From: Gammaproteobacteria bacterium
GTDB lineage: Bacteria > Pseudomonadota > Gammaproteobacteria > Chromatiales > Chromatiaceae
Direction: 5' to 3'
Assembly (NCBI GenBank): GCA_018812525.1
Contig: JAHJDE010000093.1
Location: 27,288-91,287, forward strand
Length of the DNA: 64,000 nucleotides
This document shows positions 1,025 through 45,681 of this stretch, piece after piece; the stretch's first letter is position 1, and each line of letters begins with the position of its first letter. A program made the position numbers and the translations under genes. The notes under the pieces were generated by a model. It was not told the DNA's origin and did not search any database. It saw only the letters and a program-made list of their open reading frames with translations.

Positions 1025-1231
1025 TTAGCACTGACCGGCAAGGAATGTATCGACCGGGGTTTGCGCCAGATCCGGCGGCATGGACATTTCAGAAAATGTA
1101 GGTCGGACGATGGAAATCTCTCCAGGACCCAACTCCAGCCTGCTCTGTTCGAGGGGAGGATGGTCCGCAAGGGGTTCATTACGCCCTATCTCGGCGATAT
1201 CGCCGGTCGTCATGTTAATTATGGTCTTCAT
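1025..1231 (-). CDS. hypothetical small protein (68 aa)
   Basis: Internal ATG of the 81-aa ORF is preceded by a perfect Shine-Dalgarno sequence (GAAGGAGGttgtgATG on the minus strand). Product MKTIINMTTGDIAEIG...FLAGQC matches no family I recognise. Confidence 0.5.
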   Translation of the reverse strand: MKTIINMTTGDIAEIGRNEPLADHPPLEQSRLELGPGEISIVRPTFSEMSMPPDLAQTPVDTFLAGQC

Positions 1232-1371
1232 CACAACCTCCTTCATGGGGTTCATCCAGATTTTGGCCATTCCCGAAAATCTCTGGGTTCGGCTACGGCT
1301 CCCTGGAACCCAGTGTCAACAAGGGACAACTGTCACCGAAAACGCGCCCTCCATGGCATTCCTAACAACTA

Positions 1372-1523
1372 GAGGTTCTTGCAAAACTGCAAGAACCACT
1401 TGCGGTTCAGGGATGAACCGCCATTTTCAATGACCTAAGCCATTGAAAATGAAGAAAACGAAAAATCGCATTTTTCGTTTTCGCCTTGCAAAATGGCCAG
1501 GATGGCCATTTTGCAAGTTCCTC
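1372..1523 (+). mobile_element. MITE-like five-hairpin repeat, copy 1
   Basis: About 96% identical to 19902-20049 by manual alignment. Imperfect terminal inverted repeats GAGGTTCTTGCAAAA / TTTTGCAAGTTCCTC. Flanked by direct ACTA at 1368-1371 and 1524-1527. Contains five perfect stem-loops. Confidence 0.8.
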
Positions 1524-1585
1524 ACTATAGAGATAGGTTTGTTGGTAAATTGTTCAAGGGAGCGCTTTGGGAATTGCCAACTTCA

Positions 1586-3199
1586 TCACAACTTATTCTC
1601 AACGGAATTGGTTTGTGATGAAAATAGCCCCGACAGCCGATTGGGGTCGAAATCCTCTGGAGGCGGCATCAGTCCGGTAATTCGTTGCTGCCCTTCGAGC
1701 AAAGCTCTGTGTTCACTTGCTAGGGAATCCCATACTCTTTCAAAGGCCCGTCTCAGCGCCTCGCTGCCCTTTGGGATCCCAGCCTTCAGGCCGCGTCGAA
1801 CGATGGAGACCGGTGAGGGTTTCAGGTGCCGATGCAGAAACCAGGGTATTGCCCAGGCCAGTGTGATCAACAGGATGCTGTGAACGGCAAAATCTATACC
1901 CAGAAAGGAAGCCTTGGACTGTAGCGCGTCGGAATAGACTCGGACCAGATGCTGTGCAGCCCAGCCCGCCGCGGACAGGGGCATAAGCCACTCCAAAAAC
2001 CCGCACAGCCAATGAAGGCTGCGTTGCAGCCACGAGCCTGGATGCGCCAGGGAGTTGTCGAGGGAGGACCTCAGAACCTGTCGATACAGATCGTCGCTGG
2101 CCACAGCATTTCCCTGGAGAAGGCGTTGCATAGGCTTGACCGGCAATGAGCGGGAGCGAAGCCCCTCAAGGAGCAGACTGTTCCATTGCTCCAGCAAGAC
2201 CGATTCCGTTTCCGTCCATAAGGCGTCAGCAAGCCCTGGCAGGCGATCCGGTAGTGATTCCTCGTCTATCCGGCTGGTGCGGAGGCTCTCCGTCAATCTA
2301 AGCGCGCGGTCCCCAAGCCGCCTTTCCAGTCGCCTCAGCCGAGGAACAATAACTTCTCCCCAGTTCCCCCTGGCCTGGTCCCAGAGAACCGTCGCACCGG
2401 TCCGAGCAATGAGGCGTTCAGCTTCCTTGGCCAATTCATCCTGGCGTACCCGGAGACCGAGCCGCTGCAATAGTTCCAGGCCATAATTCTGGATGGCCCG
2501 TTTGAGGATGTCCTCAAGTTGCAGGAAATCGTCCTCGATCCCCTCACCGAAACAGGAAGTGCGCAGGATACGGGGTGCCTTAAAACCCTCGGCCTCCAGC
2601 CTGAGGCGGAAATCGTTCAGTTGCTCGCTACGGCCCCGGTCCCATTGGTTCATGACGAACAACCAGGCGTGCCGGCGGCCGCGTTGCTGGAGAAAACGCC
2701 AACCGAGATCGTCCTGATAGCGCTCCGGGCTGACCACGTAGACTATCCAGTCCAGGTAGGGAAGCCAGGCCACGACCAGATCGCGGTTGCGGGCCTCCGT
2801 GCTATCCATGTCCGGCATGTCGAGCCAGGCCAGGAGGCCGCGTTCGGGGATGTCGTGGTAGGCAAGCCGGGTTTGATCCACGGGCAACTCGGGCGGCAGC
2901 AGACTCAGCCTGAAATCTCTGTGCAAGTAGAGGGTAACCTCGTGGGAGGTGGGGCGTTCGATCCCGACGCGGGCGATGGATTTCCCGGCCAAGCGGTTGA
3001 GCAGGCTGCTCTTGCCAACCCCGGTGCCGCCGAACAGCCCGACGAGCAGGGGGCGATGGTGCTTGTTTTCAAACAAGGCAGCGGCCTGCTGGTGTTCGAT
3101 CCTCTCGATTCCCCTCAGGTCATCACCCTCAAGCCAGCCTGCGCTTTGCGCCTCGCGGGCCCACGCCAGGATCGCTTGATGAAGGGTCGCAAGGTCCAT
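1586..3199 (-). CDS. P-loop GTPase, dynamin-like/MMR_HSR1-type, hydrophobic C-terminus (paralog B)
   Basis: 537 aa. G1 GGTGVGKSS, switch motif LDMPDMDS, G4-like NQWD. C-terminal hydrophobic stretch FLGIDFAVHSILLITLAWAIPWFL. Start overlaps the stop of the upstream GTPase by 1 nt (TGATG). Confidence 0.75.
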   Translation of the reverse strand: MDLATLHQAILAWAREAQSAGWLEGDDLRGIERIEHQQAAALFENKHHRPLLVGLFGGTGVGKSSLLNRLAGKSIARVGIERPTSHEVTLYLHRDFRLSLLPPELPVDQTRLAYHDIPERGLLAWLDMPDMDSTEARNRDLVVAWLPYLDWIVYVVSPERYQDDLGWRFLQQRGRRHAWLFVMNQWDRGRSEQLNDFRLRLEAEGFKAPRILRTSCFGEGIEDDFLQLEDILKRAIQNYGLELLQRLGLRVRQDELAKEAERLIARTGATVLWDQARGNWGEVIVPRLRRLERRLGDRALRLTESLRTSRIDEESLPDRLPGLADALWTETESVLLEQWNSLLLEGLRSRSLPVKPMQRLLQGNAVASDDLYRQVLRSSLDNSLAHPGSWLQRSLHWLCGFLEWLMPLSAAGWAAQHLVRVYSDALQSKASFLGIDFAVHSILLITLAWAIPWFLHRHLKPSPVSIVRRGLKAGIPKGSEALRRAFERVWDSLASEHRALLEGQQRITGLMPPPEDFDPNRLSGLFSSQTNSVENKL

Positions 3200-4944
3200 C
3201 AGGGAGACAATTCCTCTAGAGCAGACTCGGCCCGCGCCAGCTCTTCAGATGTTATGCTGAATAGACCCGCTCTCGGCATCTCTCTTGGCGCGTCGGCAAG
3301 CAGTTGCGCCAGGGGTTGCAGCAGATGGGTCTTTACCGATGCGGCCTGGGCCCGTTTCAGCTCTCTCTCAACGCCATGCATGTATTGCCCTACCGCCCCC
3401 TCGGTCAACATGGCGGTGAAGGAGAGCATGGCTGGGGTGAGAAGGAGGTCGTTCAGGCCGATCCCTCCGGTTTTCAAGGCCAGGATCACCGCTGCGGCAT
3501 CGGCGGTTACCCGTGCTACGCGGAGGGAATTGAGTAGGGCCGGATGATCTTCGAGGTGGCGATAGAGGCTTCTTGCGGCAGCTTCAATCTCCGGCAGGAA
3601 GGCGGCCCTGTGTCCGGCAATCAGTTCAGCGCCAGCCGCCCGCAAGACCGCCTCACGGTCGTGAAGGTGGCGCCAGAGGTGATGCCACCAAAGCCGATCC
3701 TCTGGCGCCCCTTCCCCGGCGCGCTCTCCGGCGATACGCTGGAGCCTGAGGAGGAGCTGGTCGATAGCCTCACCCAGTACCAGCACCTCCGAGGAGCTTT
3801 CCTCTGTGTCGTCACGCGGGACCGTCCTCAGCCATCGCCCGAGCCGGCGTGCGGGCCAAGTCAAGAGGTGACGCGCCCGTGCCATCGGCACGGCCAGCCC
3901 AGGCACCTCAAGCAGCCCGAGGAGTTGGACGACCGCGCGGTCGAGGGTCTCCCGGTAGTCGGGATTGCGAAGGTAGCTTCGCTCGAAATACTCACCCGCT
4001 GCGGCCAGCATCTTTTCCACCGCATCTTCCCAATGGCAGGCGGATTCCTGCTCCCGGCGAACAGGGGCGGTCCAGAGTGGCCAGTGGAGATCGAGCAAGG
4101 GCTTCAATAATGGCGGTGAATTGGACGGGCTGCGAGTCAACTCCCCCAGGAAACCAGACCGTAGTTGCACCACAGCCTCGCTGGCGCCCATTGAACCCCA
4201 GTCGGCCTCGGTCACATAAGGGATGGGCTGAATCACTGGGCAGGCCATGCCTTCCTGTTCGAATTTGAGTTGCAGCGCTGCTACCAGGTGCGGCCTGGAC
4301 TCCTCGTCAATCTTGTTGAGCACTACCAGCAATTGGATTCCAGCGGGGGAGAGCAGCCGTAGCAGCTCCCATACGGTTCGGTCGGCGTATTTCTCCTTGC
4401 TTACCACTAGAACCAAGAGATCGGCCAGGGCACAGAACAAAGGAACAGTGAAGCGGTAGTCGCGAGAGCTTACCGAATCGAAATCGGGTGTATCCCAGAG
4501 AATCAGCGGCTGTTCGATGCCTAAGGCCCCAGCTGCACCAGCTTCGGTGAGGGAGTAACGGTCAAACCGATCCGGGGTGAGCCGCTCGGGGGCAGCGCGC
4601 TCCATGTGGGGCAGCAGCTTGGCGGTTGTCCTTGCCATCGCTTCCGCCAGGGATGGCAGGCAAAACCCCTGGGCATGGCGGGTATAGCCTGCAAGGGCGC
4701 TGACCCCCGCGTAATCACCATCGAGCAAGAGGTTCACGAGGGTGCTTTTGCCGACTTGGGTGGGGCCGATGATAACGACCTGGAGCGGCGTTTCGTCAGT
4801 TTCCCCGCGCAAAAGCCCCTTACGCAGCAATCCCTCGGCAAGGAGCAGGGATTGCCGCTCCAGGCCCTGCCCCTTTTGCTCCCTAAAGCCGGCTTGGAGG
4901 TGGACGATGAAAGTCAGTAGGGTTTCCATCGCTATGCTGTTCAT
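3199..4944 (-). CDS. P-loop GTPase, dynamin-like/MMR_HSR1-type (paralog A)
   Basis: 581 aa. G1 GPTQVGKST, switch motif WDTPDFDS, G4 NKID. Long helical C-terminal half. First gene of a two-gene operon. Confidence 0.75.
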   Translation of the reverse strand: MNSIAMETLLTFIVHLQAGFREQKGQGLERQSLLLAEGLLRKGLLRGETDETPLQVVIIGPTQVGKSTLVNLLLDGDYAGVSALAGYTRHAQGFCLPSLAEAMARTTAKLLPHMERAAPERLTPDRFDRYSLTEAGAAGALGIEQPLILWDTPDFDSVSSRDYRFTVPLFCALADLLVLVVSKEKYADRTVWELLRLLSPAGIQLLVVLNKIDEESRPHLVAALQLKFEQEGMACPVIQPIPYVTEADWGSMGASEAVVQLRSGFLGELTRSPSNSPPLLKPLLDLHWPLWTAPVRREQESACHWEDAVEKMLAAAGEYFERSYLRNPDYRETLDRAVVQLLGLLEVPGLAVPMARARHLLTWPARRLGRWLRTVPRDDTEESSSEVLVLGEAIDQLLLRLQRIAGERAGEGAPEDRLWWHHLWRHLHDREAVLRAAGAELIAGHRAAFLPEIEAAARSLYRHLEDHPALLNSLRVARVTADAAAVILALKTGGIGLNDLLLTPAMLSFTAMLTEGAVGQYMHGVERELKRAQAASVKTHLLQPLAQLLADAPREMPRAGLFSITSEELARAESALEELSP

Positions 4945-19863: not shown

Positions 19864-19901
19864 GGTAATGTCTCCTAACCTGTTGAATAAACATTTGTTT
19901 A

Positions 19902-20049
19902 GAGGTTCTTGCAAAACTGCAAGAACCTCTTGCGGTTCAGGGATGAACCGCCACTTTCAATGGCCTAAGCCATTGAAAATGATGAAAACGAAAAATCGCA
20001 TTTTTGGCTTTCGCCTTGCAAAATGGCCAGGATGGCCATTTTGCTCCTC
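19902..20049 (+). mobile_element. MITE-like five-hairpin repeat, copy 2
   Basis: Same orientation as copy 1, with about 6 substitutions and a 4-nt deletion near the right end. Flanked by direct TTTA at 19898-19901 and 20050-20053. Confidence 0.8.
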
Positions 20050-20076
20050 TTTAGACTGGTGGTTTATCCTCGTCCC

Positions 20077-39577: not shown

Positions 39578-40729
39578 ATGGAGCTGCAACTGACCCTGGT
39601 GCGCCAGAAATACACCCCCTTCGGCGGGGCCGAGCGCTTCGTCAGCCGCGCCCTGGAGGCGCTGGCCGCCAAGGGGGTGGATATCCGCGTCGTCGCCCGG
39701 AGCTGGAGCGGCGAAAGCCGTTTCACCCTGGAACGCTGCGCCCCCTTCCATATCGGCCGCCTCTGGCGCGATGCCAGCTTCGGCCGGGCCGCGTGCCGGC
39801 GGCTTTCGCGGCAGACAAGTGGCTTGGTCCAATCCCACGAGCGCATCCCCTGCTGCGACATCTACCGGGCCGGCGACGGGGTCCACCGCGAATGGCTGCG
39901 GCAACGCGCCCGCCTGCGGGGCGACTGGTCGGACAGGCTGACCCGGCTCAGCCCCTATCACCGCTTCCTTCTCAGGGCCGAGGAGAGGCTCTTTGCCAGC
40001 CCCCGGCTGAAGGCGGTGATCTGCAACTCCCGCATGGTCCGCGCCGAGATCCAGGAGTGGTTCGGGCTGGCGGAGGAGCGGTTGCCGGTCATCCACAACG
40101 GGGTCGATACCGGCCGATACCATCCGAGGCTGAAGGAGGAGTACCGGGTGCCACTGCGCCGGCAATGGGGAATCGCCGAGGACGCCCCCCTCTTCCTCTT
40201 CGTCGGCTCGGGCTTCGAGCGCAAGGGCCTAGACGCGGCCCTGCGGGCCATGACCTGCCTGGATGAACCCCTCAGTCGGTTGCTGGTGGTAGGCAAGGAC
40301 AGCCGGACCCGCCATTACCGAAATTTCAGTATCCGCCTCGGATTGGAAGGGCGCGTCATCTTCGCCGGACCCCAAAAGGACGTTCGCCCTTTCTATGGCG
40401 CCGCCGATGCCTTTCTGCTGCCAACCCTTTACGACCCCTTCCCCAACGTGGTGCTGGAGGCCATGGCCTCGGGCCTGCCGGTGATCACCAGTTACAAAAG
40501 CGGTTCCCGCGACATCATCAACGAAGGCATCAACGGCTATTGTTGCGATGCGCTCAATGTCGATGCCCTGGCGGGTCGCATGACCGCCCTGCTCGATCCC
40601 GGCACCCGTGACCGCCTGGGCCGGGAGGCACGGAAGACCGTGGAACCCCTGACCCTCGACCGCATGGCCGATGAATATCTGGCGCTCTATCACAGGCTGT
40701 TGGGCCTGAACGATCAGACCTCCTTGTAG
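39578..40729 (+). CDS. glycosyltransferase family 4, WaaG (LPS core glucosyltransferase I)-like
   Basis: N-terminal KYTPFGGAERF resembles the WaaG KYFPFGGLQRDF. The C-terminal GT-B motif has PT.YDPFPNVVLEAMASGLPVI. The last 6 codons lie inside the duplicated thiC-end repeat. Confidence 0.8.
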   Translation: MELQLTLVRQKYTPFGGAERFVSRALEALAAKGVDIRVVARSWSGESRFTLERCAPFHIGRLWRDASFGRAACRRLSRQTSGLVQSHERIPCCDIYRAGDGVHREWLRQRARLRGDWSDRLTRLSPYHRFLLRAEERLFASPRLKAVICNSRMVRAEIQEWFGLAEERLPVIHNGVDTGRYHPRLKEEYRVPLRRQWGIAEDAPLFLFVGSGFERKGLDAALRAMTCLDEPLSRLLVVGKDSRTRHYRNFSIRLGLEGRVIFAGPQKDVRPFYGAADAFLLPTLYDPFPNVVLEAMASGLPVITSYKSGSRDIINEGINGYCCDALNVDALAGRMTALLDPGTRDRLGREARKTVEPLTLDRMADEYLALYHRLLGLNDQTSL

Positions 40730-40811
40730 ATCTCGGCCCCCTGGCGCCGGAACTCCTCGGACTTCTGCCGCATGCCCTCTTCCACCGATTTGGCGTAATC
40801 CCTCACGTCCT
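40711..40811 (-). pseudogene. orphan duplicate of the thiC 3' end (last 31 codons plus stop), repeat copy A
   Basis: 99/101 identical to 43789-43889. The minus strand still reads [31 protein letters not shown]-stop. No upstream thiC body. Confidence 0.9.

Positions 40812-43788: not shown

Positions 43789-45681
<1,893 letters not shown>

Follow-up and report, generated by a model that had tools for sequence, protein, structure and literature searches.

The 152-bp element at positions 1372-1523 of a 64,000-nucleotide stretch of gammaproteobacterial DNA (the window) consists of five back-to-back hairpins, and we find that it is a true MITE, which has spread through the genome that contains the window (G000) by transposition. 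The explanation that best accounts for the whole of the evidence, and that we consider very probable, is that the element is moved by a transposase of the IS1182/IS5 group and carries an old, conserved hairpin core. MITEs of this kind, derived from IS1182-family insertion sequences (IS) and flanked by 4-bp repeats, are known (PMC11578231, PMC3852290). The architecture and evolutionary pattern of the present element are unusual and previously undescribed, in that its core covaries throughout a bacterial family and its termini are matched to those of local IS.

Structure, copy number and insertion sites

Two copies lie in the window, with the following features and neighbors:

1025-1270, minus strand: small ORF downstream of copy 1, which lies between two minus-strand genes
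1368-1371, no strand: left target-site duplication ACTA of copy 1, identical to 1524-1527
1372-1386, plus strand: left terminal inverted repeat GAGGTTCTTGCAAAA, the presumed transposase-binding end, matching IS1182/IS5-type IS termini
1374-1383/1388-1397, no strand: hairpin 1, 10 bp, formed by the left terminus and an inverted inner copy of the same terminus
1402-1409/1414-1421, no strand: hairpin 2, GCGGTTCA-GGGA-TGAACCGC, 8 bp
1422-1432/1441-1451, no strand: hairpin 3, 11 bp, with lower stem CATTTTCA/TGAAAATG
1454-1466/1470-1482, no strand: hairpin 4, GAAAACGAAAAAT-CGC-ATTTTTCGTTTTC, 13 bp, the site of a 42-nt insert in the 194-bp subfamily
1485-1499/1503-1517, no strand: hairpin 5, 15 bp with a GGA loop, formed by an inner inverted terminus copy and the right terminus
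1509-1523, minus strand: right terminal inverted repeat TTTTGCAAGTTCCTC (reverse complement GAGGAACTTGCAAAA)
1524-1527, no strand: right target-site duplication ACTA of copy 1, identical to 1368-1371
1586-3199, minus strand: gene upstream of copy 1, 537 aa, unknown family, with its stop codon 63 nt from the element
19898-20053, plus strand: copy 2 including its TTTA duplications (element 19902-20049), 96% identical to copy 1

The five consecutive hairpins described for copy 1 in the initial annotation are all present where it had placed them, except that hairpin 5 is 15 bp long, not 12 bp. The ends, which it had called imperfect inverted repeats, are complementary at 13 of their 15 positions (87%; 1372-1386 with 1509-1523), and the direct ACTA reported on either side is found at 1368-1371 and 1524-1527. 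Copy 1 encodes nothing and differs from the genome-wide consensus by two substitutions; the consensus has a 12-bp hairpin 1 and a 13-bp hairpin 3, each longer than in copy 1. Its predicted DNA fold has an energy of -58.1 kcal/mol, compared with -18.5 +/- 3.1 kcal/mol for dinucleotide shuffles (z = -12.6, equaled by 0 of 200 shuffles), and the RNA fold of the transcribed minus strand reaches z = -12.1.

Copy 2, at 19902-20049, does carry the different 4-bp duplication noted for it, TTTA. It is decayed: its right terminus is short by 4 nt, and its hairpin 4 is broken by two substitutions. In a congener (G001), the orthologous spacer is without the element and is too diverged for a base-exact empty site to be read from it. 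Both window copies lie shortly past a stop codon between minus-strand genes, in agreement with the gene layout first proposed. As regards the neighborhood of copy 1, the two genes upstream of it (537 and 581 aa, window 1586-4944) gave no NCBIfam family above cut-off, a P-loop GTPase N terminus being the only part recognized, and their relatives are widespread in Chromatiaceae and Methylococcaceae MAGs. Elsewhere in the window, a 101-nt direct repeat (40711-40811 and 43789-43889) is 98% identical over two copies 3078 bp apart.

G000 is a 3.5-Mb assembly, in 215 contigs, from an uncultured gammaproteobacterium and has 61% G+C, as against 43% for the element; among named protein matches, the nearest (62% identity) comes from the Rifle MAG "Gammaproteobacteria bacterium RIFOXYD12_FULL_61_37". 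The genome-wide BLASTN count that had been suggested as a check returned 187 loci of at least 60 nt in G000, 82 of them full length, with 97-98% identity and ends that are consistent across all 82. Since BLASTN also placed 70 partial copies at contig ends, the repeat breaks the G000 assembly, where it causes at least 70 of ~430 contig ends. A search for the termini found 371 ends, which correspond to ~185 elements. Adjacent end pairs fall into nested size classes of 45 bp (n = 7), 89 bp (n = 15), 151-153 bp (n = 73) and 193-194 bp (n = 18), to which mini-elements of 28 bp, made of hairpin 1 alone, are to be added. The 45-bp class consists of hairpin 5, prolonged as far as both termini; hairpins 1, 2 and 5 make up the 89-bp class, and the 194-bp class carries a 42-nt insert in hairpin 4. 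Because each end is a hairpin formed by a terminus and its inner inverted copy, the 28-, 45- and 89-bp sub-elements would carry two usable ends.

Among the 79 full copies for which both flanks are available, 54 have an exact 4-bp target duplication, in 42 different, AT-rich sequences, while duplications of 2, 3, 5, 6, 7 or 8 bp fit just 0-7 of the 79; an exact 4-bp duplication is absent in ~30% of copies. Of these 54 copies, 31 have C at -5 and 34 have G at +5, so that the preferred insertion context is C-NNNN-G. We conclude from the ~185 copies, the consistent ends and the variable 4-bp duplications that the element is a true MITE, and the earlier suggestion of transposition rather than local duplication thereby stands. 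Copies in G000 lie on average 3.4 nt (~2%) from the consensus, indicating a recent burst.

The element is palindromic, intergenic and high in copy number, and G000 contains seven Y1_Tnp genes, so one could think of a REP/BIME-like palindromic unit spread by a RAYT (tyrosine transposase) instead of a DDE transposase. REPs, however, have neither terminal inverted repeats nor 4-bp duplications, both of which are present here; the termini equal those of DDE-type IS; and none of the seven Y1_Tnp genes adjoins a copy of the element in G000. We regard this reading as extremely improbable, and the dissimilarity from REP/BIME pointed out in the initial annotation is borne out on each of these grounds. 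The Y1_Tnp (IS200/RAYT-type) genes themselves are found at seven loci, for example C57:16866-17198 and C175:166857-167177.

Relative to genes, 103 elements of G000 could be placed and nearly all are intergenic, the 12 apparent overlaps lying at the margins of ORF calls that are crude, since ORFs were scored by a codon model trained on G000 itself. A lower substitution rate in stems than outside them (1.2 vs 2.6 substitutions per position) was considered as a sign of stem constraint after insertion and set aside, because it is driven by a few shared subfamily sites. We also observed two 99-bp elements (G000:C21:594-692 and G000:C75:5494-5592) with ends GAGGCTCTTGCAACA or GAGGCACTTGCAAAA / GAGCCTCTTGCAAAA; these may belong to a second family of small MITEs that has the same IS as its source.

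Insertion sequences with matching ends

The termini of the MITE follow the pattern GAG-NNN-CTTGCAAAA, which is that of IS1182/IS5-type insertion sequences, and the search for a cognate transposase gene with matching inverted repeats, another check proposed at the outset, led to IS of this type. A long element bounded by the MITE termini was sought in G000, and no end pair lies more than 194 bp apart. One contig, however, ends inside a DDE transposase gene (G000:C164:39156-39627; DDE_Tnp_1_6 / DDE_Tnp_1), and the 210 bp downstream of this gene finish with GAGCCTCTTGCAAAAC, in which 14 of 16 positions agree with the MITE terminus. The contig of the window starts with a second copy of this IS end (G000:C175:1-154), and a third contig starts within a 5′-truncated copy of the same transposase gene (G000:C168:1-276); the latter IS copy is fused to a remnant of an IS1595-like transposase gene. 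The partner IS of G000 is thus known from fragments only, one copy being 5′-truncated and the others cut by contig ends, and since no intact copy is assembled in G000, we infer rather than observe that this particular IS mobilizes the MITE.

Full-length relatives of the IS were found on metagenome contigs (L127-L138), with 80-87% protein identity and lengths of 1.48-1.6 kb. Their 3′ ends align to the whole of the C164 end. The transposase of the L127 type has 390-413 aa, with DUF772, DDE_Tnp_1 and DDE_Tnp_1_6 domains, and scores highest on the IS1182 model, yet below the cut-off of that model. The IS termini read GAG(C/G)CTCTTGCAAAAC and the 4-bp duplications (ACAG, ACAA) are preceded by C. 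The nearest annotated plasmid homologues are named IS1182 family and end in GAGGCACTTGCAAAA or GAGCCTCTTGCAAAA; the GAGGCACTTGCAAAA variant, which closes an Acinetobacter IS1182-family element, is also found letter for letter at the termini of some MITE copies, and ISUnCu17 begins GAGAGCCTCTTGCAAAAGG. MITE and IS have the same 15-16-nt termini and the same 4-bp duplication, the MITE differing from IS5/IS1182-family IS in being without a transposase gene. As the two share no sequence past the 16-nt termini, the MITE did not arise from the IS by simple internal deletion.

Other candidate partners were rejected: a DDE_Tnp_1 match on contig C71 of G000 is an unrelated degenerate fragment, and the IS1182-like genes of G001 and G012 are GC-rich and without matching termini. 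Within the IS copies themselves (L127-L130 and G000:C164), a subterminal CCCTTGC motif, a partial inner copy of the terminus, is kept ~150 nt from the right end, and the same copies have a covarying hairpin, TCGCACC-n5-GGTGCGA, near the right end; the motif and the hairpin may be accessory transposase-binding or regulatory sites.

A hairpin core shared across the family and its exchangeable ends

Related elements, ~72-74% identical, are present in other genera of the same bacterial family, and the elements of these lineages each fold independently into the same five hairpins despite differing stem sequences. Compared with G000, 133 pair positions are changed on both sides and still Watson-Crick, 22 are G-T and 41 are unpaired, some of these 41 being register artefacts. 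With a covariance model, the core (hairpins 2-4) was found in 66 of 151 sampled genomes and in 45 of 83 genera, many of the genomes having at least 30 scored core candidates.

The compensatory changes whose search had been recommended are abundant. In a set of 37 sequences from ~30 genomes, aligned by fitting to the model, which favors pairing, 94.7% of the core cells are paired, vs 79.8% in shuffles and 36-49% with slid partners. Changes on both sides affect 22 of the 34 core pairs (190 cells), and 0 of 500 shuffles reach any of these measures. Across genera, such double changes are seen at 7 of the 8 pairs of hairpin 2 and 10 of the 13 pairs of hairpin 4; hairpin 3 covaries in its upper stem, whereas its lower stem, CATTTTCA/TGAAAATG, has a sequence that does not vary. 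A MAFFT alignment of the whole element was discarded for pair counts, as it shifts the register in some stems, and the independent folds and the model-based core alignment were used instead.

Perfect hairpins could also be a mutational by-product. Arm-to-arm correction of quasi-palindromes is an established mechanism, in which intrastrand template switching copies one arm onto the other with no selection involved, and it would account for the strict Watson-Crick pairing of the stems on both strands and for the scarcity of intermediates. It likewise agrees with the count within G000, where 8 compensated pairs stand against 131 single mismatches, as expected if a recent burst was followed by slow correction. 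Template switching nevertheless leaves unexplained why five hairpins of fixed length, order and loop sequence are found in 45 genera, and gives no reason for the invariance of the loops and of the hairpin 3 lower stem beside freely varying pairs. We therefore consider it unlikely as the full explanation of the hairpins, while giving it more credence than the other alternatives discussed in this paper.

In every lineage, hairpin 1 is a terminus followed by its inverted copy and hairpin 5 is an inverted copy followed by the terminus, and the target duplication in the other lineages is mostly 4 bp. The termini are lineage specific and include GGGCACCTTGAAAAA, CAGGCTGTTGAAAAA, GAGGCTGTCGCAAAA, GGGAAACGCTGATT, GGGAACCCCTGATT and TAGTGTCCG. 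In two genomes, G114 and G051, MITE ends match those of intact IS exactly. G114 contains two intact 1303-bp IS whose ends, CAGGGTGTTGAAAAA, are identical to those of its MITEs and whose duplications are TTAA and TTAG. G051 has a 1194-bp IS with ends GGGCACCTTGAAAAA and the duplication TTGA, and a second IS of 1216 bp with ends GGAAACGCTGATC. The transposases of the G114 IS and of both G051 IS score above the NCBIfam IS5-family cut-off. The transposases of G114 and of the L127 type are 22% identical, whereas the adjoining cores are at least 75% identical, which argues that the core has not co-diverged with the transposase and that the ends have been exchanged or re-matched.

A further group of five-hairpin elements (L160-L167, L184 and L194, from G015, G008, G146 and G152) has quite different termini, TAGTGTCCGTCCGGAAAC ... 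GGATGCTAAC; no matching IS was found for them, and an IS in G146 (L210:1315-2916) ends in GATACTGTTGAAAAACTC, unlike them. In G051, an old IS1182-like transposase gene, rich in GC, carries in its 3′ end a five-hairpin MITE (positions 1694-1844 of L211, G051:C1:2281000-2284194) flanked by a TTAA duplication. The reading frame (...LVCLAWNL|KRMAVL...) is interrupted by the element and continues beyond it, a clean case of insertion. The transposase fragment that abuts the core in G051 had been a candidate for a parental configuration, and this was dismissed, the MITE having instead inserted into the old transposase gene with the TTAA duplication.

Possible roles, known relatives and proposed mode of propagation

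The proposal in the initial annotation that the hairpins could act as terminators or mRNA stabilizers found no support. On such a reading, copies would be kept as RNA elements serving the host, by terminating transcription or stabilizing mRNA 3′ ends. Terminator-like sites do occur, at hairpin 2 of the plus strand and at hairpins 4 and 1 of the minus strand, which makes three where shuffles would yield 0.8; the RNA fold of the element is very stable, and both window copies lie directly past the stop codon of a gene. The genome-wide distribution, however, shows no enrichment at gene 3′ ends: tandem, convergent and divergent spacers hold 40, 16 and 16 elements in G000 and 43, 18 and 14 in seven other genomes, in both cases approximately as spacer lengths predict. 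The orientation within tandem spacers shows no consistent bias, with 13 co-oriented vs 27 opposite elements in G000 (p = 0.04), 20 vs 23 in the seven other genomes (p = 0.76) and 33 vs 50 combined (p = 0.08); a bias among genomes of terminus type A (19 vs 42) comes from a post hoc grouping by terminus type and is not relied on. In addition, hairpins 3 and 4 have AT-rich stems, and the strict Watson-Crick pairing (133 both-side changes vs 22 G-T) is not required by a constraint acting on RNA only. As neither gene-end enrichment nor a consistent orientation bias is seen, a terminator or stabilizer role is unsupported, and we judge it improbable. Spread over the spacer classes, nearly always intergenic and without a consistent orientation bias, the element shows the pattern of a selfish one.

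A second possible role concerns CsrA. The forward transcript would display two GGA loops, in hairpins 2 and 5, that could bind CsrA and so place neighboring genes under Csr control or titrate the protein. Of 104 copies, which represent ~30 genomes and every terminus type, 98 have GGA in the hairpin 2 loop and 96 in the hairpin 5 loop; the stems that bear these loops covary, and the extended loop pattern CA-n-GGA-uG is kept in 95 and 92 of the 104 copies, respectively. CsrA is encoded in G000, and the best Rfam match of the element is rsmX, far below threshold (15.2 bits vs a gathering score of 56). Measured against the CsrA SELEX consensus, RUACARGGAUGU (PMC7652899), hairpin 2 agrees at all 12 of 12 positions in 18 copies, and 17 further copies score 11 of 12; on the opposite strand no score exceeds 9. 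On the other hand, the high-affinity SELEX hairpins have at most 4 contiguous pairs (PMC7652899), whereas the stems of the element have 8-15 bp. A strand-specific RNA role would predict an orientation bias, and none is consistent (20 vs 23 in the other genomes, and 13 vs 27, in the wrong direction, in G000). No promoter-like site lies within or beside the element, and there are just two GGA sites, ~90 nt apart; the sequestering RNAs CsrB and RsmX/Y/Z differ in having many GGA loops and their own promoter and terminator. G-rich loops, moreover, stabilize DNA hairpins as well. The unbiased orientation, the lack of a promoter and the long stems thus disfavor CsrA binding as the main driver, and we give this role only a slim chance.

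As to known repeats, high-copy, intergenic, structured elements with terminal inverted repeats and short duplications include the Correia elements of Neisseria, ERIC and RUP/BOX, whose size variants arise by internal deletion; Correia duplicates TA. Their termini and duplications are unlike those of the present element, and to our knowledge none of them consists of five consecutive perfect hairpins, nor do we know of one that keeps its core while exchanging its termini. REP/BIME share the clusters of high-copy intergenic palindromes and differ in being RAYT dependent, without terminal inverted repeats or duplications.

Closer relatives are found among IS1182-derived MITEs. MITEPye1 of Paracoccus yeei has 4-bp direct repeats and termini resembling those of ISPye18 (PMC11578231); like our element, it is non-coding and intergenic, with IS1182-type termini, and it is predicted to fold into a stem-loop. 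Going by its description, it is set apart by a copy number of 1-3 per chromosome, as against ~185, and by one long stem-loop instead of five hairpins; the present element is further distinguished by its nested size classes and its multi-genus core with exchangeable termini. The ISMac2 MITEs of Methanosarcina acetivorans (IS1182 family, 160 bp, 14 copies, IR 26, DR 4; PMC3852290) are alike in size (~160 bp), 4-bp duplication and IS1182-family partner; they differ in their archaeal host and low copy number, and no multi-hairpin architecture or cross-genus core is reported for them. Some IS1182-family members target palindromes, and IS1272 transposes by replacing a stem-loop (PMC5678879). IS1272 has in common with the present system the IS family and a link to palindromic DNA, and offers a possible route for the replacement of terminal hairpins; it differs in that it replaces its target hairpin and leaves no target duplication, whereas our copies have 4-bp duplications.

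No description of this particular five-hairpin family was found in the literature, in Rfam or in the plasmid collection. In the Rfam check that had been advised, neither the window copy nor the elements of seven other lineages came near a threshold. No match was obtained from the plasmid collection at the DNA level or from genome contigs scanned for an exact 26-mer, and a literature search on motifs of the element returned chance primer matches only. Regarding the earlier caveat that the element might belong to an already described repeat family, we found no description of such a family, and the kind to which the element belongs is a described one (PMC11578231, PMC3852290).

We propose the following mode of propagation for a MITE moved by an IS1182/IS5-group transposase. 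A DDE transposase of this group, supplied by an IS elsewhere in the genome, would bind the 15-16-nt termini and insert the element at AT-rich 4-bp targets within C-NNNN-G, duplicating those 4 bp; termini, target duplications and partner elements are the grounds on which we infer these binding and insertion steps. A recent burst would have produced the ~185 copies of G000. The three central hairpins would be an old conserved core, common to the MITEs of at least 45 genera and bounded in each lineage by termini that match a resident IS, and selection, or hairpin-templated repair, would keep all stems Watson-Crick paired. Most likely, the folded form is needed for the propagation of the element or for its harmless persistence, and not for a service to the host.

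Several features hint at a function of some unspecified kind: the invariant lower stem of hairpin 3, the GGA loops on one strand, and the identity of the core despite transposases that are 22% identical. It is conceivable, if improbable, that the three-hairpin core is a functional cargo, repeatedly picked up by different IS5/IS1182 transposases through exchange of the terminal hairpins, and that it spreads CsrA-type GGA hairpins, or the site of another single-strand-specific protein, across the family. If this were true, neighboring genes would be wired into a global post-transcriptional network, or the regulator would be buffered.

The practical uses of this MITE family are as strain-typing markers and, with the covariance model, in the masking and annotation of these repeats in genomes of the family. 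MITEs are usually seen as decaying remnants of one IS, whereas here one core persists in at least 45 genera, its ends re-matched to transposases that are ~22% identical while its stems are kept by compensatory change. This raises the questions of whether secondary structure is required for the mobilization or the tolerance of a MITE, and of how a non-autonomous element switches partner.
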